A DNA stretch of 64,000 nt from Candidatus Poribacteria bacterium (lineage in GTDB: Bacteria; Poribacteria; WGA-4E; JAJDTR01). The stretch is from NCBI GenBank assembly GCA_965222225.1, contig CBDCTK010000002.1, positions 3,872,001 to 3,936,000 on the forward strand. The letters run 5' to 3'. Below, one piece after another: positions 1,337 to 62,440 of the stretch; the stretch's first letter is position 1, and the number at the start of each line of letters is the position of its first letter. Position numbers and translations under genes: made by a program. The notes below the pieces were generated by a model. It did no database searches. It was given only the letters and a program-made list of their open reading frames with translations, and was not told the DNA's origin.

Positions 1337-1437
1337 GGAATTTCTATCGTCCTCGTTGTTCATTCGGTTGATTGCTCCTTATTCATTATTCAGTCGCTTG
1401 AGGGGATTTATATCGAACTCCCTTTTCGATTACTTGA
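1337..1437 (-). repeat. Cluster of three 35-36 bp micro-element copies following GTAGGGCGGGA
   Basis: Minus strand TCAACCGAATGAACAACGAGGACGATAGAAATTCC plus two further partial or degenerate copies. Confidence 0.75.
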
Positions 1438-1550
1438 TCCCGCCCTACCGAGGTTGAGGATAGCGCTTTAATATCGGTTGTGAACTCGTTGGGTTTGGTA
1501 TAGAATAAGATTGTGTTTCTCGAAGACGAATTGGAAGAGTGGGGTAGAAA

Positions 1551-4317: not shown

Positions 4318-4412
4318 ATCCTCGTCACTTGTTCTATCTCTGTAAAAATCGCCATCTGCAAGTTGACGATAAGAAGCTCTCTAGAATCAAGTATGATTTC
4401 CCTGAGATACTA

Positions 4413-4639
4413 GGTTCTGTTGACATTTATGTTAAGCGTGTGCGTAATCGTAGGGGCGAGGATCAAGTGAGCGAATAGCGAATGCGATAGGGATCTTCCC
4501 CTCGCCCAACGGGTTGGGAGGCACAACCCCTACGGATGCCGGTGCATGCCTAGTCGGGAGCGTGGTTCCCTCGTCCGTTCCTCCTACGGGTTAAGCTGTG
4601 TTCACATGTTAAAAGAACGTGCCAATCACAAACAGAACC
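4413..4639. mobile_element. MITE-like repeat (end GGTTCTGTTGACATTTATG) containing GTAG-REP hairpins and a micro-element
   Basis: Homologous inverted copy at about 60900-61001, related end at about 1283, and AACAGAACC matching right end near 4639. Confidence 0.55.
4463..4497 (+). repeat. 35-bp micro-element inserted in the loop of the REP hairpin GTAGGGGCGAGGA|CCCCTCGCCC
   Basis: TCAAGTGAGCGAATAGCGAATGCGATAGGGATCTT; removing it restores the hairpin. Confidence 0.85.
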
Positions 4640-4653
4640 CGCAAGGGCGGGGA

Positions 4654-4775
4654 TCAAATGAGATCAAGCGAGTGCGATAGTAGATCCCATAGTGAATGAT
4701 CAACTGAGCGAATAGCGAAGGCGATAGACAATCCTACTCGCTATCTGTTCGCTTGATCGTTATCCGCTCGTTAGA
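4654..4775. repeat. Nested micro-element cluster, both orientations
   Basis: Several TCAA..GCGATAG..ATCCY units, nested on the plus strand, followed by minus-strand partial copies. Confidence 0.8.
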
Positions 4776-8325: not shown

Positions 8326-8391
8326 TTGACAGGGTCATGAACTTGCTTGAATGGGACGTGGCGAAACAATCGCAATTGCATGAAGGAGTGA

Positions 8392-8493
8392 TCAACCGAC
8401 CAGACAGGGACGGCGATAGAAATTCCCTCCGATTCGCGACTCCGATTGCCGACAGTTAAAGATCCCTATCGCATTCCTTATTCAGTCGCTTGA
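8392..8493. repeat. Two convergent micro-elements (8392-8426 +; 8459-8493 -), the second after GTAGGTCGGGA
   Basis: Both match the consensus. Confidence 0.8.
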
Positions 8494-8513
8494 TCCCGAC
8501 CTACCGGAAAGCG

Positions 8514-10504: not shown

Positions 10505-10620
10505 TCAACCGACCGGATAAATCAAGCGATCGAACAGGGGGCGATCAAGGGAATGAAAAATGACCGCGATAGAGTTCGCATAGGGATCCCAGGGCGATAG
10601 AAAATCCAGATAGAGATCCC
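10505..10620 (+). repeat. Nested micro-element stack inside an AGAAACCGA...TCGGTTTC palindrome
   Basis: Three 5' ends and four GATAG..ATCC-type 3' ends between the palindrome arms. Confidence 0.8.
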
Positions 10621-10992
10621 TTTCAGGAAAAATCTCGGTTTCAACACCTTGGAATTTACAAAGGCTGGCGGGATTTCTACACCTGAACAAAACGGGCTAC
10701 GAGCCTGTTTGAAAAGTACAGTTTGTAGGGTGCGATCAGCTGACGAGTTCAATCAAACCAAGAGTATAGGTATAAAGATAAACCCACCTACGACATCAAG
10801 AGTCAGTTTGAGTAATGGATAGAAGAGTCATGTCTGGTCACATGAGGAGTGGCTTTTTTGTTGCTTTGCAGTCACTCGCGCTGCAACGCACGCGGAAAAT
10901 GTTTGGTGGTCTCTTCGTGTGCTCGAGAATACGAGAAAAGTAGACAGTGAAACAGTGCGAAGAAAACGGCGGCACTGGCAAAGGAGGTTTTT

Positions 10993-14339: not shown

Positions 14340-14455
14340 CAATCGAATAGCGAGCAGGATTATCTATGGAATCTCTATCGCACTCACTATCGCGGTAGGA
14401 TTTCTATTGTGCTCCGTGTTCAGTTGCTTAATCCGCCGCTATCCGATTAGTTGAA
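14340..14455. repeat. Degenerate micro-element cluster, mixed orientation
   Basis: GAATAGCGAG followed by minus-strand CTATCGCACTCACTATCGC units. Confidence 0.65.
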
Positions 14456-22241: not shown

Positions 22242-22350
22242 TCAACCGAGTGGATAGCGAGTAGGATTTTCTATCGCCTTGGGATTTCTATGAACTCCAT
22301 CACACTCGCTATTCACTCATTTGATCCCTCGTTGTCCACTCGGTCAATCC
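22242..22350. repeat. Micro-element cluster, mixed orientation, next to a GTAG-REP
   Basis: TCAACCGAGTGGATAGCGAGT followed by nested minus-strand copies. Confidence 0.75.
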
Positions 22351-24072: not shown

Positions 24073-24189
24073 TCAAGCGAACGATCAACTGAGCGGATAG
24101 CGAAGGCGATAGTAAATCCCATAGTGAGTGCGATAGAGATTCCCTCAAACGAGATCGACCGAACTGACAGTGAGTGCGACAGCTTTTTC
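24073..24189 (+). repeat. Cleanly nested micro-elements (inner 24085-24120 inside outer 24073-24144) plus further copies
   Basis: Removing the inner 36 bp restores an intact outer copy. Confidence 0.88.
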
Positions 24190-27832: not shown

Positions 27833-28138
27833 AGGACTTTGGACGCGAGAAACGCTTCCTTTCGTTGATTTTTTAGTGTCATAGGTAGGAGGGAATTCCG
27901 ATTCCCGACGATTGGCTTCAACCTAGGGCGGATTCCATCTCGCTCGAAAGATCAAGACTCTTTTGCGCGATCAGGTTGGGCGTGAGCGTGGTGGCTGCTA
28001 CGATGCCGATTAACATGAGCACGCCGCCGAGCGCAATGTACCCCGATTTCTGCTTGTAATTCATATATATCTGCCTTTTGTACGGAAAATATGTAGGTTA
28101 GGTTTAGTTGAATATGTGGGAATAGTAAGATTCCATAA

Positions 28139-28297
28139 GAGCCTGTTTGAAAATACAGTTTGTAAGGTGCGATCAAGCGAATGAATAATGAGCGCGATAG
28201 AGATCCTACAGATATGTAGCAGCCAACAATGAAAACATGAAAAAACTTCCGACAAATGACTAAAAATGGCTTTGCCACCGATAATTCAAGCAGGCTC
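28139..28297. mobile_element. MITE with TIR GAGCCTG(T/C)TTGAA and TAA target duplication, carrying a micro-element (28173-28207)
   Basis: TAA|GAGCCTGTTTGAA...TTCAAGCAGGCTC|TAA; homologs at 47516 and 60378. Confidence 0.85.
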
Positions 28298-29217: not shown

Positions 29218-29309
29218 GAAATCGGTTTTTCATCAGCTAATACCATTCCGCTTGAATAATAGTGCATATGATGTCTGAATTATATCGTTCACTTTCTCCG
29301 TAGACGGGA

Positions 29310-29358
29310 TCAACTGACTGGATAAGGAAGGCGATAGCTAATCCCGATAGAGATTTCC
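29310..29358 (+). repeat. Micro-element with extra 3' end
   Basis: After GTAGACGGGA: TCAACTGACTGGATAAGGAAGGCGATAGCTAATCCC then GATAGAGATTTCC. Confidence 0.8.
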
Positions 29359-34368: not shown

Positions 34369-37300
34369 CTACTTCCGTATCAACATCTTCCGTGTCGCCG
34401 CAAATTCACCCGCCCTCAGCGTATAGAAATATAAACCGCTGGCGATCGACTCGCCACGCCCATTCCGACCATCCCAATACGTTGCACGTCCTAGGCTCTG
34501 ATACATGCCCGCCGCTTGATGCCCCACATCAAGACGTCGCACTAGCTGTCCCCCGATGTCATAGATGGTCAGTGCGATCTCTGCCGGAGCTGCCAACTGG
34601 TACGCTATCCAGGTCTCAGGATTGAAGGGATTCGGATAATTGGGCAGGAGTGCCGTCTCTGACGGGATCATCGAGGCTGACAACACCTCGAGGTTGGCTA
34701 TGGCTTGTCGGAAGGCGATTGAGCCGTCGTCTGCGAGTCGTGCTTGGGCAATCCACGTCTCTATTGTCTTGGATTCTAACCCATGCGCTGGCGGCGCGGC
34801 AGTTCCGCCAATTCCCTGAGCGACGAGAGTGAGGTCGAATATATTTACAACCCCATCGCCATTAACATCCACGCTCGAGTTGGCGGGCACACTTCTCCCT
34901 AACTGCCGCGCAACCAGAATCAGATCCAAAATACTGACAACTCCATCACGATTTACATCCCCGGTCATCAGCCGTTCCTCCACAATGAAAGTGATTTCAT
35001 GCGGCCCCGCCGGGATGTTTTCACCAGTGAAAGAGCCAAGCTGGAAGTTACCCAGCGCCACTGCTGTTTCGCCTTCAGACTTCGCCTTAAACCTTACCTG
35101 AAGCAGGGGACCGCTGCCACTGACGCCACTGTCGGAAAGCAGCGCAGCCTTGAGTCCCATGATTTTTCCATTTGCGTTATCAATACGCCCAGCCTGAAAG
35201 AAGACTGTTCCTCCATCCGTCTTCAGGAAATCGCCTTCGCTCGTGTCAATCGCTTCAAGGACGAAAGAATCAAAGGCGATATCAAACTGCCACCCCGCCA
35301 AGTCGAACACATTTTCTGCTCGGATGTCGAGGCTAAAGGTATCGCCGATGTGAATTGGCGTCTCGGAAAAGGCGTAGCCGACGCCAGTTCCCACCGTATA
35401 TTCAGTGTTGGGCTCAAATCCAAAGAAAGCGCCGGTGTCGAAACTAGGCGAGAAAACCGCAACTAACAAAACATTTTTCCCCTGCTGAAGCGTAACCGGG
35501 AAAAAATCATTGTAATCAAGCTCCAGCGCCCTGTCACCCAGCACCTCGTAGACCAAATCTCCGTTGAGCCAGACCTTTAGTCCTTCGTCGTTGCCAACGT
35601 GCATCCTTGTCTTCTGTTCCCGTGGCGAATAGAGGGATATAGTGCCGTAGATAACGCCGTCGCTCAGCATACCTCCGATGTTGTTCCGATCCGTAGACGG
35701 GAGTTGGTGGGAGGTCCACACGTCATCGCCAACTGATTTTCCCACTGTTGCCCCCTGTGTGGCGACGTCCACCTCTGTCACCGTACCGTCACTGGCTTCT
35801 GATAGTAAATCGGTACTGCTATCCAGTATGGTGTCCGGTAACAAGACCCATAACCAAGGTCCCCCAATTTTTGGACCTCCTTGTGGGAAACCCGGATTGT
35901 CGTACGTCCCAAGGAATTTCATATTGGGACGTAACCCGTCTAGAGGAGAAAGATCGGAGATTTCGTTCACGGAGACATCCAGCCATGTTAAATTGGATAA
36001 ACCGGCGAGCGCCGATATGTCTGAGATTATGTTGTTGTGGAGGTTCAACCACTTCAAGTTGGATAACCCTGCAAGGGATGATATATCCGATATATCATTA
36101 CGTGAAAAATCTAGCCGTTTCAAATCGGTTAATCCCGCAAGGGGTGAAATATCCGCTACGTCGTTGCCGAATAGATACAGTTCTTCTAGGCCCGTCAAGC
36201 CCGCCAAAGGGGTAAGATCCGATATATCTCCACCGGGAAGAATAAATGCCTCAGTTTTGTCAATCCTGCCAAGGGCGATAAATCGGATGCGGATGTGCCC
36301 ATGTGAATGAGTTCCAGGTTGACTAATCCGGCAAGCGGCGATAGATCGCGTATGTTAGAGTGACTCACAAAGAGTTGCTCTAACTTGGGTAGCCCAGCAA
36401 GGGGTGTAAGGTCCTCTACTCCATGAAGAGCTAAAAAAGTTAGATTAACCAATCTGGAAAGCTGTTTCGCGTCATGAATAACGGAAGGTGAATCGATGAA
36501 GTCAATATCTAGAGCTTTTAACTGGGTTAGTCCTGCTATCGGAGAGAGATCGGACACCTTAGACCCACTACCATTTATGCTAGACAGATTGGTCGCAAAC
36601 TGAAGACCGGTTAAATCGCGGATATCTTGGCCCTCTATTATGCTCAAGAAAGTCAATCCTTCCATGTCTTCCACGGTTATCGGGGCATTGGGACTTTTGC
36701 CAAGTTCTTCAGCAATGGCAGTGCGTAGGTTCGGATCCGGGATATAAACCTGCGTACCCGGTATTACATCCGGCTGCGTTATTACCGGGGGCTCTCCAAC
36801 TTGCCCCGGGTAATCCAGCGCATACATCACGTCTCGAAAACTCGATGTCCAGGTGTCCCGTTGCACGCTCCCGTTCTCACCCTCTAACGCCAACAAACCT
36901 ATGTTCTGTAGTCCCGTGTTCTCACGAACCTTTTCGAGAAAGACTTCGGTTTCTAAACCAACCACGGCAGCGGCGTATGCGGCGTCTACCGGTCCCTGAA
37001 ACGCCTCATGGAAACGTGAAATCGGCTCAACCCCGCCAATCGCACCGCCCGTCTCTACAAGCGCTTCCCGATAGCGCTCCATGTCGCCACCCACACGAGC
37101 GTCCATGTCCGACTTTTCAACGTAGAGTCGCAACGCCTGCGCTTTGTTGTAAGGCGGGTTGGTATTGCTCTCAATCACGGAACGTACCTGGTCTTCAAGG
37201 GTCTTCATTCCCTCCGTATGACAACCTATACAGGAAAGTCCGTTGCACACCGTCGGGTCGCTGGCTGCGGGGTTGGAAACAATGTTTATCGGCGCCTCGT

Positions 37301-38501
37301 CTAGACGGAAACTGGACGCATTGACAAGGTAGTAGCCCTGCAACCCGTTTGGCAGATTGAAGATTGCCTCACCGCCATCGTGCGTGAAATTAAGCGGGTG
37401 GGTAAAGATGTTCTGTGCCCCGACACTCCCGGCAAAGTCGTAGCTTTTCCAGTACGCCCCGTATCGAGAGGTGTGCCGTTCCACTACCCGGTTGTTATTG
37501 GAGACTCCCGAATTGTTGAAACCCGCCCGCAAGACGCGAACCCCGGGTGCATTAATCAGATTACGGGCGACATCAACCTCCAGTCGGGTTTCCAACTCCC
37601 TATCCGTTAGTGGCAGCGAAAGCAGGTCGTGATACAGCGGTGGGGTGGATGCCGTTGCAATGAACCAGTCGATATGAACCGACGGCACATCGGTCTTCAT
37701 CTGTGTCTGCAACCGTCCAAGTTGATTCCGCAGGGCGGACTGTGCGGATGCATCAAAGGCGATGTGGTAGGGGTATTCCTCTTCTATCTTCGTCCAGGCA
37801 TCGTTGACATCCCATTCGTAGTGTCGGAGGTCGATGTAGAAGATGGTTACTTGCGAGTCGATTGGGATTGGGTTGATGACTGTTACTCCCCATGAGAGGC
37901 TGTTAACCAATTTATAGAGTGCTTTGCGGTACCCACCAAGTAACTCCGGAGTCCTAGAAACCCCTATCGCGCTCCCTATTCGGTCGCTTGATCCAGCGTT
38001 ATGGAGATGGGTAAGTGTGAAGTGGCGGGCAAACGCTGAAAGTGTGTTGAGGTGCGTGTCAATGCTCTTGAGTATTTCGCCGAGCGAGATAAACCGGCTA
38101 TTGGTCGTGGGAGTCGTCGCCCAATCGGGTGCGCCGGCTACTATCCAGCGTCGAATGGTGTCAATCGACTGAGGGGGCAACTGGGGCTGTCCGAACGGCA
38201 TCTGTGCGCCGCTTTCGGTGGGGCCTAGCAGCCGTTTATACAGCTCGGAGGCATTCGGATTCCCCGGAACAACGGTGCCCCCTCCGATAAGCTCGCTGTG
38301 TTCCATCAGGAGTGTTTCTCGATAAGCGCCGTCGGGACCGTGGCAGATGAGGCAGCTCCCCTCAAAAATGGCATAGGTATCTTGGGCTAACTGCGATTGG
38401 GCGGACACATGTTGAGAGCCTACGATGAAGGTCAATAGGTAGATAAATGTAACGCGATTCTGAGCACGAACCGGAGAAGAGATAGAATGACGTTTAAGCA
38501 T
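34369..38501 (-). pseudogene. Large secreted protein (Planctomycete-type cytochrome c domain, second CxxCH domain, LRRs, cohesin, dockerin, FlgD-Ig tail) split by a frameshift near 36240
   Basis: CLICH and CIGCH motifs; the LRR series continues across ORFs 36195-38501 and 34369-36207 after a 1-nt shift; GDVNRDGVVSILD dockerin; NYPNPFNPET tail. Confidence 0.8.
37956..37991 (-). repeat. 36-bp micro-element inserted in frame in a CDS (encodes SSDRIGSAIGVS)
   Basis: Minus strand GGA|TCAAGCGACCGAATAGGGAGCGCGATAGGGGTTTCT|AGG. Confidence 0.88.
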
Positions 38502-44269: not shown

Positions 44270-44516
44270 TAGCTCGACTTTGTAAAAAAGTACAATTCTG
44301 AATTGCCATCTTGTAGGGTGCGATCAAAGGAATGAATAATGACTGCGATAGAGATTCCCTGCGCACCAGCCTCTAAAAGCCCCAGAGTGGGATCAAGGGA
44401 GCGAATAGTGAGTGCGATAGAAACCTGACAGGTATGTAGCAGCCAACAATGAAAACATGAAAAAACTTTCTCAAAATCTCAAAAATGGCTTTGCCACCGA
44501 TTCTTCAAACAGGTTC
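44270..44516. mobile_element. MITE-related repeat with two micro-elements (44324-44358, 44393-44426)
   Basis: Right half matches the 28139/47516 MITE and ends TTCAAACAGGTTC|TAA; left end unclear. Confidence 0.7.
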
Positions 44517-47510: not shown

Positions 47511-47515
47511 TTTAA

Positions 47516-47687
47516 GAGCCTGTTTGAAAAGTACATTTGTAGGGTGCGATCGACTGACTGATTAAGGAAGGCGATAGTAAATCTTGATAGAGATCCCGCA
47601 GGTACGTAGCAGACAACAATAACAACATGAAAAAACTTCCTACCAATGACCAAGAATGGCTTTGCTACCAATTATTCAATCAGGCTC
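47516..47687. mobile_element. MITE (TIR GAGCCTG.TTGAA, TAA duplication) with micro-element 47550-47597
   Basis: TAA|GAGCCTGTTTGAA...TTCAATCAGGCTC|TAA. Confidence 0.85.
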
Positions 47688-51910: not shown

Positions 51911-51957
51911 CCAGCCCGTTAGGCAAGTCTCAGCTTGACTTTGTACATTTGTAGAGA

Positions 51958-52010
51958 TCAAACGAGTGGATAGCGAGTGCGATAGCTAATCCCGCGCGAT
52001 AGAAGATTCC
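51958..52010 (+). repeat. Micro-element with extra 3' end
   Basis: TCAAACGAGTGGATAGCGAGTGCGATAGCTAATCCC then GCGCGATAGAAGATTCC. Confidence 0.8.
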
Positions 52011-53735: not shown

Positions 53736-53782
53736 TCAAGCGAGCAATCAAGCGACTGGATAAGGAGCGCGATAGAGTTCCC
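53736..53782 (+). repeat. Nested micro-elements in REP GTAGGTCGGGA...TCCCGAC
   Basis: Two TCAAGCGA 5' ends and one complete unit. Confidence 0.8.
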
Positions 53783-60246: not shown

Positions 60247-60377
60247 TTATCATGCATATATTAGCAATCAATGATCGGTATGATTGTGTGCGGCATAGTA
60301 GTAGGGAATGCAGATCTGCGTTCCCCACAATCGTGAAGGGACGTACGTCCTATAATAAATGCACGTATTGACATTCA

Positions 60378-60644
60378 GAGCTTGTTTGAAAATTCATTTC
60401 GGGAAGAGCTTTTGCCCTGAAACCGATCAAATGAGCGAATAGCGAATGCGATAGAAATCCCTATTTTCTTGAAAACTCCGTTTCTTTCTTGCGCAAACCC
60501 GTAGGGTGCGCGCTGGGATCAAGGGAGCGAATAGTGAGTGCGATAGAAATCCTGACAGGTGTATAGCAGGCGACCACAAAAGCATGAAAAAGCCGCGCCC
60601 ACAGTGACCGAAATTGCTTTGCCACCTATTATTCAAACAGGCTC
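60378..60644. mobile_element. MITE (TIR GAGC(C/T)TGTTTGAA, TCA duplication) with two micro-elements (60427-60461, 60519-60553)
   Basis: TCA|GAGCTTGTTTGAA...TTCAAACAGGCTC|TCA. Confidence 0.85.
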
Positions 60645-60735
60645 TCAAGTAATACCATTTCGTTTGAATAGCAGTGCATAGAGTGAAATAATTATCTCGT
60701 TAGGACTTACGCGGTGGAGCACCCGGTAGGAGCGA

Positions 60736-60770
60736 TCAAACGAATGGATAACGAGTGCGATAGAGATCCG
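60736..60770 (+). repeat. 35-bp micro-element in a GTAG-REP (filled counterpart of 43157-43181)
   Basis: GTAGGAGCGA|TCAAACGAATGGATAACGAGTGCGATAGAGATCCG|TCTCTCGCTCGCGAC. Confidence 0.9.
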
Positions 60771-61054
60771 TCTCTCGCTCGCGACAGGAGGTCGCGAGGA
60801 AAGTCCGCTCCGACAGAAGACGCGCAATAAATTGCGCTACTACAAATCAAACCAAGCAAATCCAACACGTGTAATTCTTAATTGCAATGACTATAAGAGT
60901 TCCCGGTTAGGCATGCACCGGCATCCGTAGGGGTTGGGTCTACCAACCCTTGTGCCTCCCTCGAATTACGCACACGCCTAGCATAAATGTCAACAGAACC
61001 TAATACGGTATCTGACAAAAATTAACAATCTCTGGCTTCCAGAAAGGAAAAATA

Positions 61055-62275: not shown

Positions 62276-62405
62276 TCATTCTCTAATCGGTGCCCTCTCT
62301 GGCTGCTCCGTCTGGATTGGCAAACCCGGAATGATCGGATTGTCAGTCAGCGGGAGTTTGTAGGGTGGGCACTGCCCACCGTCTTTTGTAGGGTGCACAC
62401 TGCGA

Positions 62406-62440
62406 TCAAGGGAATTGAAATTGATTGCGATAGAGACTAT
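62406..62440 (+). repeat. Degenerate micro-element after a GTAG-REP
   Basis: TCAAGGGAATTGAAATTGATTGCGATAGAGACT. Confidence 0.7.

Follow-up and report, generated by a model that had tools for sequence, protein, structure and literature searches.

The palindromic elements of Rickettsia, which measure ~100 nt or more and belong to sequence families of that genus, reportedly insert in frame into functional genes and add a peptide segment to the product. The repeats SDR1-8 of Nostocaceae are said to be small dispersed repeats of 21-27 nt that are confined to a subgroup of cyanobacteria. The element described here, a unit of 34-36 nt in the genome of a Candidatus Poribacteria sponge symbiont, is like the Rickettsia elements in being a palindromic repeat that lies in frame within genes and contributes a peptide segment; as with intragenic REPs, a copy lies wholly within an ORF, keeps the frame and adds residues that the homologs lack. 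It is unlike the Rickettsia elements in length and sequence family, in that RPE-1 is several times longer and comes from an unrelated lineage, whereas the Poribacteria element is overwhelmingly intergenic. With the cyanobacterial SDRs it shares the very small size of the mobile unit, a common structure maintained by compensatory changes, and nesting within its own copies and within other repeats. It departs from the SDRs in its length (36 nt vs 21-27 nt), its sequence and fold, and its occurrence in a phylum other than the cyanobacteria, and it is documented here inside protein-coding genes.

In-frame REPs inside genes have already been published (Di Nocera 2013, PMC3733652), so the phenomenon as such is known. 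According to that report, REPs are GTAG- and CGTC-tagged palindromic repeats of 20-40 bp that are mostly intergenic and present in high copy number, a minority of which lies wholly in ORFs and encodes extra residues, with dimers or groups giving 20-30 residues. The Poribacteria element agrees with this description in being a high-copy stem-loop within the range of 20-40 nt, mostly intergenic, located in some cases in ORFs, and with abundant G.T pairing in the stem. However, it has no fixed GTAG or CGTC tag, its stem is not GC-rich and combines 2+2 covarying pairs with invariant tandem G.A pairs, its neighbouring copies (<=50 nt apart) mostly stand in direct and not inverted orientation (160/182 pairs), and the 36-nt unit is frequently nested in itself.

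Reports on the REP/RAYT and REPIN systems (Nunvar 2010, PMC2817692; Bertels & Rainey 2011, PMC3116915; Bertels 2017, PMC5581495) describe RAYTs as always flanked by two inverted REPs. In terms of these reports, the Poribacteria genome is comparable in its abundant short hairpins, their compensatory changes and the presence of Y1/HUH relatives at about one copy per genome, and its IS200-like gene resembles 'IS200 group 3' in having an IS200-like sequence, in being single-copy and in lying beside abundant repeats. It differs in that the inverted flanking of Y1 genes is only loose and does not extend across species, and in that the replicative unit is a single hairpin and not an inverted doublet. 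The element resembles REPs and the cyanobacterial SDRs, and is a full match to neither. In the main text of open-access papers on Poribacteria and REPs, repeats, transposase and IS200, we found no description of it.

The insert and its host gene

The analysed window is the whole stretch of 64,000 nucleotides, and the insert lies in an ORF that comprises a signal peptide, a planctomycete-type cytochrome c domain (PSCyt1), a conserved middle region and LRRs (Table 1). The gene continues in another frame in the downstream ORF; a frameshift splits it in this assembly, and a 98%-identical homolog (P0002) reads straight through the frameshift position. Because of this split, selection on the present copy is uncertain. 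An AlphaFold2 model of residues 1-560, computed with 42 close homologs, was, at a mean pLDDT of 33, unusable for placing the 12 residues in the fold.

Table 1. Location of the insert, its host gene, family copies and verified in-frame gains; positions are those of the window unless prefixed by C2.
Feature	Position	Strand	Basis or remark
Host ORF, 768 aa, N-terminal part of split gene	36195..38501	-	ORF call, domains
Downstream ORF, 612 aa; LRR, cohesin, dockerin, FlgD_ig/Por tail	34369..36207	-	
Inserted unit TCAAGC...GTTTCT, 36 nt	37956..37991	-	boundaries match clean nested insertion
Full family match, model positions 1-38	37957..37994	-	nhmmer, alignment, pair counts
Family copy	1337..1374	-	profile match, alignment
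Family copy	1403..1440	-	profile match, alignment
Family copy	4460..4497	+	profile match, alignment
Family copy	4697..4734	+	profile match, alignment
Family copy	8389..8426	+	profile match, alignment
Family copy	8459..8496	-	profile match, alignment
Family copy	10542..10579	+	profile match, alignment
Family copy	14397..14434	-	profile match, alignment
Family copy	22290..22327	-	profile match, alignment
Family copy, nested, 36-nt class (C2:3896082)	24082..24119	+	profile match, alignment, excision test
Family copy	28170..28207	+	profile match, alignment
Family copy	29307..29344	+	profile match, alignment
Family copy	44321..44358	+	profile match, alignment
Family copy within GCCCC..GGGGC..GACAGGT hairpin repeat	44390..44427	+	profile match, alignment
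Family copy	47547..47584	+	profile match, alignment
Family copy	51955..51992	+	profile match, alignment
Family copy	53745..53782	+	profile match, alignment
Family copy	60424..60461	+	profile match, alignment
Family copy	60516..60553	+	profile match, alignment
Family copy	60733..60770	+	profile match, alignment
Family copy	62403..62440	+	profile match, alignment
In-frame gain, integrase	C2:460876		+33 nt
In-frame gain, TamB-like	C2:2921271	antisense	36-nt unit within 72 extra nt; 6 orthologs without
In-frame gain, three GHL15/LRR paralogs			
In-frame gain	C2:4078941		
In-frame gain	C2:3939335		
In-frame gain	C2:3117011		
In-frame gain	C2:970907		

The inserted unit encodes SSDRIGSAIGVS, residues 171-182 of the host ORF, in the protein context HLHNAG[..]RTPE; it starts on the codon boundary of residue 171 and reads TCA AGC GAC CGA ATA GGG AGC GCG ATA GGG GTT TCT. 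The family match additionally takes in the GA of the preceding GGA codon, so that the motif GATCAA is completed, and the unit would have inserted directly behind this codon (Gly170). In the whole-genome scan with the family profile, nhmmer matched the host copy at 37962-37993 (E 7.7e-7). Its stem pairs are GC/GC and CC/GG, the covarying pairs are Watson-Crick in four of four cases, and the exact 36-mer has a single occurrence in the window at <=3 mismatches (0 expected). The resemblance of the host copy to the family is not fortuitous. Within the order (121 genomes), the 38-nt host variant together with its tail was found in no genome but this one.

An earlier note had interpreted these 36 nt as a micro-element that entered the gene in frame and had predicted a gap of 12 residues after NAG in paralogs and orthologs. 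The profile match and the alignments bear this out and make the unit one copy of a dispersed family, as all five in-genome paralogs (68-90% identical) show exactly this gap (NAG|ETPE), and the proposed boundaries, TCAA...TTCT, coincide with the 36-nt unit of a clean nested insertion and of the 61 nested cases considered below. Neither among the paralogs nor among 120 database homologs did proteins without the motif keep 12 residues at this position. The insert is missing from 115 of the 120 homologs, and the five bearers include the window's own protein. Across the genus (10 genomes), none of 80 other matches reaches the 360 nt that a locus with the insert would have (spans 330-342 nt), and the motif was found inside the gene at 0/80 homolog loci from species-representative genomes. 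The 12-residue in-frame segment is a true extra segment. Its filled form is also present in contigs from other studies' runs, and the junction 37955|37956 is bridged by one contig of an RNA library. In the Logan contigs from four runs there was no joint that skips the 36 nt and no empty allele, which neither shows nor excludes such an allele because contigs lose rare variants and break at the repeat.

We consider it probable that these 36 nt belong to a very small non-autonomous mobile element of Candidatus Poribacteria, one copy of which inserted here in frame. As the unit amounts to 12 codons and this copy contains no stop codon in the reading frame concerned, it left the gene open and added 12 residues, which most likely represent a tolerated passenger.

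The distribution of the insert among its bearers is patchy. In a tree of the 120 proteins the five bearers occupy three separate places and their common ancestor is the root, so one simple insertion does not account for all five. Gene conversion between paralogs, or repeated precise loss, is a plausible if tentative explanation of this pattern in place of independent insertions at one hot spot: all five bearers have the atypical tail GVS, and each genome of the genus carries 3-15 paralogs. Nevertheless, the flanks beside the insert are in each protein those of its own clade, and the codon after it differs by group, being AGG (R) here and coding for F in P0091 and P0099. Most empty copies have GAA (E) at this place, and present-day empty paralogs thus differ from the filled gene by more than a clean stretch of 36 nt. 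For P0091, the best locus has 82% identity and lacks the insert.

The repeat family and its hairpin

Scanning the 5.70 Mb genome with nhmmer gave 1584 family matches at E<=10 and 1052 at E<0.01, and 756 of the 775 full-length matches are exactly 37 nt long. Our copy analyses use 1042 copies (E<0.01), 893 of them intergenic, 58 overlapping an ORF end and 91 within ORF calls, in a genome with a coding density of 82%. The unit, mostly 36 nt, reads TCAA-NN-GA-NN-GRATA-NN-GA-NN-GCGATAG followed by an 8-nt tail of the AAATCCC type, and the family is unusually small and sharply defined.

Positions 8-24, 9-23, 12-20 and 13-19 form Watson-Crick or G.T pairs in 93-96% of the 1042 copies. Each of these four covarying pairs shows 3-4 pair types, with mutual information of 0.42-1.17 bits, and in the stem they are interleaved with the invariant tandem G.A pairs; alongside the four covarying pairs the fold has three invariant ones. 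In the 22 copies of the window, 94.8% of the cells are paired as against 74.7% in shuffles, and the covariation score is 0.625 as against 0.21, values that none of 500 shuffles reached; a control with slid partners gave pairing in 22-47% of the cells. A.C pairs are far rarer than G.T pairs, with 9 against 254 at pair 8-24 for example, which places the fold on the GATCAA strand. Shuffles folded with predicted energies as good as those of single copies (four strands; z 0.18 to -0.57 as DNA), so it is the covariation that carries the hairpin. The contrast that the earlier note had drawn with palindromic elements does not hold, as this element, too, forms an imperfect hairpin, and its pairs show strong covariation of the compensatory kind.

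The tetranucleotide GTAG occurs <=14 nt upstream of 235/1042 copies, with a preferred offset of -7, as against 29 for the control GATG. It lies outside the conserved unit, which ends GATAG, and the host copy has no GTAG. Other readings of the repeats were discarded. A CRISPR-like interpretation of the 66-69-nt spacings conflicts with copies that differ by 20-30%, with varying spacings and with nesting, while a simple tandem repeat of three GA-rich sub-blocks is contradicted by the fixed 37-nt length and by the covariation. At gathering scores, Rfam families had no match in the window, and a microRNA match at E<=10 (60300-60900) was attributed to chance.

Nesting, mobility and candidate enzymes

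In 61 nested cases, the outer copy becomes intact again once exactly 36 nt are cut out; the same holds for 34 nt in 34 cases and for 35 nt in 15, with <=5 cases for each other length from 28 to 45. The best placement of the 36-nt unit begins with TCAA directly after a GA in the outer copy in 31/61 nested cases, at two hot spots, and the unit follows GA in 5/6 gene junctions read at the DNA level. Two paralogs differ by a clean 36-nt insertion without target duplication. The family behaves as mobile DNA. The movement of REP-like repeats is still debated; in this family, dozens of insertions, nested or within genes, allow the unit, its junctions and its favoured landing sites to be defined with single-base precision.

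IS200/IS605 elements are described in one report (PMC2817692) as producing no target duplications and as depending on stem-loops. The Poribacteria element is similar in its duplication-free insertion beside a short fixed sequence, the GA of the junctions above, in its one-strand stem-loop and in the Y1 transposase gene encoded in the same genome. In contrast to IS200/IS605, it is a 36-nt single hairpin that carries no gene, and its enzyme and cleavage sites are candidates only. We infer that it moves as a folded single strand, which would be handled by a candidate HUH/Y1 enzyme of the IS200 or RAYT type.

An IS200-type gene (C2:3080258-3080728; NF033573, 65.8 bits with a cut-off of 55) occurs once in this genome, and inverted family copies lie on both sides of it here and beside its closest orthologs (5 orthologous loci). 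The copy downstream of it is embedded in another hairpin repeat, GCCCC..GGGGC..GACAGGT, and this repeat may be the real end of the IS200-type gene. Inverted family copies closely flank a truncated RAYT-like gene, while full-length RAYT-like genes (8 relatives) have no family copy within ~1.3 kb. In genus g6 both Y1 genes are present in 3/3 genomes and any family copy in only 2/20 genomes; high copy numbers were seen in two Poribacteria genera only, and viral contigs gave 0 matches to the family pattern. The IS200-type and RAYT-like genes are thus candidates, neither of them established as the partner of the element, and together with the defined unit they give assays of cleavage or transposition a concrete substrate.

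An RNA intermediate has reportedly been proposed for the cyanobacterial SDR elements. Spread by this route, and not by a single-strand DNA transposase, seems unlikely for the Poribacteria family. The strand-specific fold tolerates G.U pairs, the adjacency to transposase genes is not consistent and the co-occurrence with Y1 genes is imperfect, all of which would suit an RNA intermediate, but G.T pairs are stable in DNA as well, and tests of transcription orientation and spacer type revealed no bias, with 362 sense vs 322 antisense copies in unidirectional spacers and densities of 0.59-0.74 per kb across spacer types. The GC skew was too weak to place origin and terminus, which made a replication-strand test uninformative.

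In-frame copies in other genes

At least nine further copies in this genome represent in-frame gains of 11, 12 or 24 residues, each verified against empty paralogs or orthologs (Table 1), and the proposal of the earlier note that the element seeds new peptide segments is well founded beyond the host gene. The earlier note also predicted an enrichment of 36-bp over 35-bp variants in coding sequences, on which these data bear only weakly. All verified gains in coding sequences measure 33, 36 or 72 nt; this census was by construction limited to copies in intact ORFs and could not see frame-breaking insertions, and 36 nt is the commonest unit outside genes too.

The exact 30-nt core of the host copy is found in 4/1042 copies, three of which are clean gene insertions, namely those in the cytochrome/LRR gene, the integrase and the TamB-like gene. 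The probability of such a concentration is about 1e-5 to 3e-6 (hypergeometric, from the counts). Conceivably, though we hold this with low confidence, the element is a cassette of 12 codons that is complete in itself, ranks with the smallest known mobile DNAs and lands almost regardless of coding status, and the core marks its youngest active sub-lineage. The gene copies would then offer a direct view of fresh transposition before clearance by selection, and the element would be a steady source of new loops in the surface and mobile-element proteins of Poribacteria. Alternatively, the sub-lineage with the 30-nt core could be actively aimed at transcribed or coding DNA.

That the insert is more than a passenger, and that selection maintains it as a peptide (unrelated proteins share SSDRIGSAIG) or as an mRNA hairpin, is quite improbable. 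In favour of this reading, P0003, P0091 and P0099 have the same 12 residues or differ at one of them, with flanks that are only 73-87% identical, every hairpin pair is intact in the host copy, and the core is common to the three gene insertions. A recent insertion or conversion could equally give this conservation, however, and the peptide follows directly from the repeat consensus. Moreover, one of the three core-bearing inserts is read on the opposite strand and yields a different peptide, ITIALPIRSLDP, the great majority of homologs (115/120) do without the insert, and older gene copies, those of the GHL15 family, have lost the pairing. That the 12 residues are ancestral and were deleted elsewhere, or are an assembly artefact, is a formal possibility and an extremely remote one, given a full repeat-family copy with a perfect hairpin, its absence from essentially all relatives and the filled form in contigs of other studies' runs.

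The gene copies represent a route for adding short loops to proteins in an uncultured sponge-symbiont phylum, and the affected proteins include LRR, cohesin and dockerin surface proteins thought to be relevant to living in the host. In genome annotation, many spurious small ORFs result from the ~1000 copies, which also explain length differences of 11, 12 and 24 residues between paralogs.

The insert in the host gene and its history

The earlier note had reported 36 nt added in frame to a protein-coding gene, and this observation is confirmed. The addition encodes a 12-residue segment of an ORF (the host ORF, 768 aa) with a planctomycete-type cytochrome c domain (PSCyt1) near its N-terminus and leucine-rich repeats (LRRs) at its C-terminus. 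Compared over 560 residues, five in-genome paralogs are 68-90% identical to the host, and each of them is exactly 12 residues shorter at this point, with the junction NAG/ETPE against NAG[SSDRIGSAIGVS]RTPE in the host, and the segment is absent from 115 of the 120 best database homologs. The five carriers are the window's own protein (P0001), P0002 (98%), P0003 (91%), P0091 (77%) and P0099 (76%). The 360-nt span expected with the insert was reached by none of 80 other matches in 10 genomes of the genus, and in species-representative genomes of Candidatus Poribacteria another 80 homolog loci were all free of the motif inside the gene. Among the paralogs and the 115 homologs there is therefore no motif-less protein that keeps 12 residues at this position, which the earlier note had named as the finding that would speak against an insertion. 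Four residues (DRAF/DRSF) present in all other homologs are missing in the host protein and P0002 at about residues 157-158, some 14 positions ahead of the insert.

In the tree of the 120 homologs, the bearers occupy three places (P0001 with P0002; P0003; P0091 with P0099), and P0003 is placed within a 12-leaf clade of which nine members are empty. Among the five bearers the insert varies by one residue at most, against a difference of 13-27% in their flanks, and the codon after the insert specifies R, R or F in bearers versus E in most empty copies. Reinsertion at a hot spot, gene conversion or repeated loss may each account for this patchy distribution, none being favoured. Contigs from other studies' runs contain the filled form, and none of them skips the 36 nt. 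The host gene is split in this assembly by a frameshift near codon 746, inside an LRR; the frame ends ...LRHLFFPVEIYRILPLWRA with a stop, and the LRR goes on as PGGDISDLTPLAGL... in another frame. P0002 reads through the split into the next ORF (211 of 223 residues identical) and itself diverges beyond a KKKK run. Either the gene is a true pseudogene, or the assembly has a homopolymer error at this point.

A dispersed hairpin family with a 36-nt unit

More than 20 related copies lie in the window. With a profile of 21 of these copies, a search of the 5.70-Mb genome gave 1584 matches at E<=10, of which 1052 were at E<0.01; the host copy scored E 7.7e-7, and 756 of the 775 full-length matches were exactly 37 nt long. 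No such family was found in Rfam. On the left, conservation sets in abruptly at GATCAA; the invariant blocks are GATCAA, GA, G.ATA, GA and GCGATAG, and the tail (ARATCCC) is less strictly conserved. Genes were called with a simple procedure of our own, which gave 4729 ORFs and a coding share of 82%. By these calls, 893 of the 1042 copies analysed are intergenic, 58 lie across an ORF end and 91 fall within called ORFs; most of the latter ORFs are small and low-scoring, or the copy lies near their called start. GATC stands at the start of most copies and again in their tail (GGATC...GATCC), which means two new GATC sites per insertion in a genome rich in DNA methylase genes. Several copies are preceded by a longer conserved leader, TAAGAGCCTGTTTGAAAA..ACAGTTTGTAGGGTGC, some are followed by a 105-nt repeat, and the 37-mer appears to be part of larger composite elements. 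Two inverted repeats, 48-49 nt long and 88-90% complementary, are separated by 56 kb, and each has element copies next to it.

The variable dinucleotides between the invariant blocks covary. Nowhere in the region is mutual information higher than at the four pairs 8-24, 9-23, 12-20 and 13-19; each shows three or four pair types, and its bases are Watson-Crick or G.T partners in 93-96% of the 1042 copies. Invariant G.A/A.G juxtapositions stand between these pairs and ATC/GAT closes the stem. Because G.T pairs greatly exceed A.C pairs, the fold is assigned to the GATCAA strand. In an alignment of 22 copies from the window, pairing holds in 94.8% of cells versus 74.7% in shuffles, and the covariation score is 0.625 versus 0.21 (0/500 shuffles for both); with slid partners only 22-47% of cells pair. 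Nearest-neighbour energies did not single out the hairpin. Judged by covariation and pair counts, the element is an imperfect, non-canonical hairpin. The earlier note's interpretation is thus partly supported: its reading of a micro-element inserted in frame stands, whereas its contrast with palindromic elements was wrong.

Neighbouring copies are in direct orientation in 160 of 182 pairs within 50 nt, often overlapping or nested. We removed k nt (28-45) around every copy and counted the cases in which the remaining sequence was again an intact outer copy, defined by a score not below the 5th percentile and formation of all four pairs. The most productive length was k=36, with 61 copies; k=34 gave 34, k=35 gave 15, and each other k at most five. 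Of the 61 copies, 31 are best placed with TCAA as their first bases, directly behind a GA of the outer copy; nested landing sites follow outer position 22 in 17 cases and position 15 in 11. A clean insertion is seen at C2:4078941 against its paralog C2:2516868 (83% identical), where ...GATCAAACGAACGA/ATAGTGAGTGCGATAG... becomes ...ACGA[36 nt TCAAC...AAATCCC]ATAG... with no target duplication relative to that paralog. The boundaries that the earlier note proposed in the host gene match exactly those of this insertion.

Copies inside other genes

A census of copies within ORFs of at least 180 aa, away from their ends, gave 15 candidates, of which ten are verified additions and five had no informative paralog. 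All verified gains are multiples of three, in a census which sees intact ORFs only and is hence a biased gauge of the enrichment of 36- over 35-bp variants predicted in the earlier note. Two sense and two antisense frames of the unit are mostly stop-free. The 1042 copies have 618 distinct cores; four of the copies carry the 30-nt core of the host insert without any change, and three of these are the insertions in the host, integrase and TamB-like genes. Six more occurrences were found in 30 relatives, five intergenic and one in a 516-codon open frame of another genus (genome G027), just after a signal-peptide-like stretch ..FTQADVIGSSDRIGSAIVLTD.., which is likely a further in-gene insertion. 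Tails differ between copies with identical cores. We prefer to read this core as a possibly young, still active sub-lineage whose gene copies would not yet have been purged.

Coordinates of the insert, related insertions and associated features (C2, contig of this genome, G000; L, individual loci)
Feature	Position	Detail	Compared with
Host ORF	window 36195..38501 (-)		
Insert	window 37956-37991 (-)	TCAAGCGACCGAATAGGGAGCGCGATAGGGGTTTCT, translated SSDRIGSAIGVS, residues 171-182; +12 aa (36 nt)	5 paralogs, 115 homologs
DRAF/DRSF gap	window about 38010-38030		
Host-gene split	window 36195-36260 (-)		
Continuation ORF	window 34369-36207	LRR, cohesin, dockerin, Por tail	P0002
Identical 30-nt cores	C2:460876, 2921271, 3909958, 1550866		
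Core in G027	L086, 1501-1530		
Tyrosine recombinase (integrase)	C2:460876	SSDRIGSAIGNP, net +33 nt	empty in 4 paralogs and 4 aligned orthologs (of 9 fetched)
TamB-like gene, 2418 aa	C2:2921271	antisense read ITIALPIRS; 72 extra nt, including a 36-nt unit that follows GGGA	absent from 6 orthologs; 7th with unrelated insert
GHL15/LRR paralogs (n=3)		+11 aa	at least 6 empty paralogs
In-gene copy	C2:4078941	+12 aa	one paralog
In-gene copy	C2:3939335	+12 aa, directly after signal peptide	paralogs
In-gene copy	C2:3117011	+24 aa	two paralogs
In-gene copy	C2:970907	+12 aa	one paralog
Copy with two GATC	window 28170-28207		
Conserved leader	window 10698-10740, 28136-28175, 47513-47552, 60377-60399		
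105-nt repeat	window 28196, 44416, 47586, 60543		
Inverted repeats	window 4408-4559, 60901-61005		
IS200-type gene	C2:3080258-3080728	157 aa	
Truncated RAYT-like gene	C2:3560268-3560486 (L005, L092)	73-92 aa	
Second hairpin repeat	L037/L038/L043; window 44375-44435	AAAGCCCC-NNN-GGGGC-GACAGGT	

Relation to known repeats and a candidate enzyme

No published description of the family was found in the literature searched on Poribacteria repeats, and the element is to that extent a previously undescribed variant of the REP/SDR kind. Its behaviour is closest to that of the cyanobacterial SDR elements reportedly described by Elhai in 2008. Unlike classical REPs, the family lacks the fixed GTAG tag, its stem is G.A-rich and non-canonical, its neighbours are direct rather than inverted, and its 36-nt unit is often self-nested. 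In-frame insertion of repeats into genes is already known: PMC3733652 describes REPs within genes of many bacteria as single units or 20-30-residue dimers and counts the Rickettsia RPE-4/6 elements among them, and REP/RAYT and REPIN biology is treated in PMC2817692, PMC3116915 and PMC5581495.

How the element moves we infer only indirectly. Mobilization by a Y1/HUH transposase is suggested because the hairpin is strand-specific, target duplication is missing and a fixed GA adjoins the unit, which are properties of IS200/IS605 elements according to PMC2817692. The genome has five Y1_Tnp matches. The best is a single-copy IS200-type protein (NF033573, 65.8 bits, above cut-off; RayT model, 30.6 bits, below the cut-off of 80) with HUH and Tyr motifs, resembling the ISDra2 and IS608 transposases. 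Inverted family copies lie on both sides of its gene, and each of the five closest orthologous loci has at least one family copy within about 200 nt. However, the downstream copy sits within a different hairpin repeat (GCCCC..GGGGC..GACAGGT), which flanks the gene in inverted orientation and in genus g4 is its only flanking repeat. A truncated RAYT-like gene, which corresponds to the C-terminal half of the RayT model, is tightly bracketed by element copies in inverted orientation, at distances of 17 and 52 nt; where relatives in other species have the gene at full length (172-202 aa), no element copies are close to it. A survey of 176 genomes of the phylum found the family in high copy number only in genera g1 (10/10 genomes, 526-1207 pattern matches) and g4 (4/4, 184-202), the backwards-pattern control giving 0 in all 176, and genus g6 has both Y1 genes but almost no copies. 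The 36-nt element often lands in the second hairpin repeat, with about 50 copies preceded by CCCAG(A/C)G(T/G)GG.
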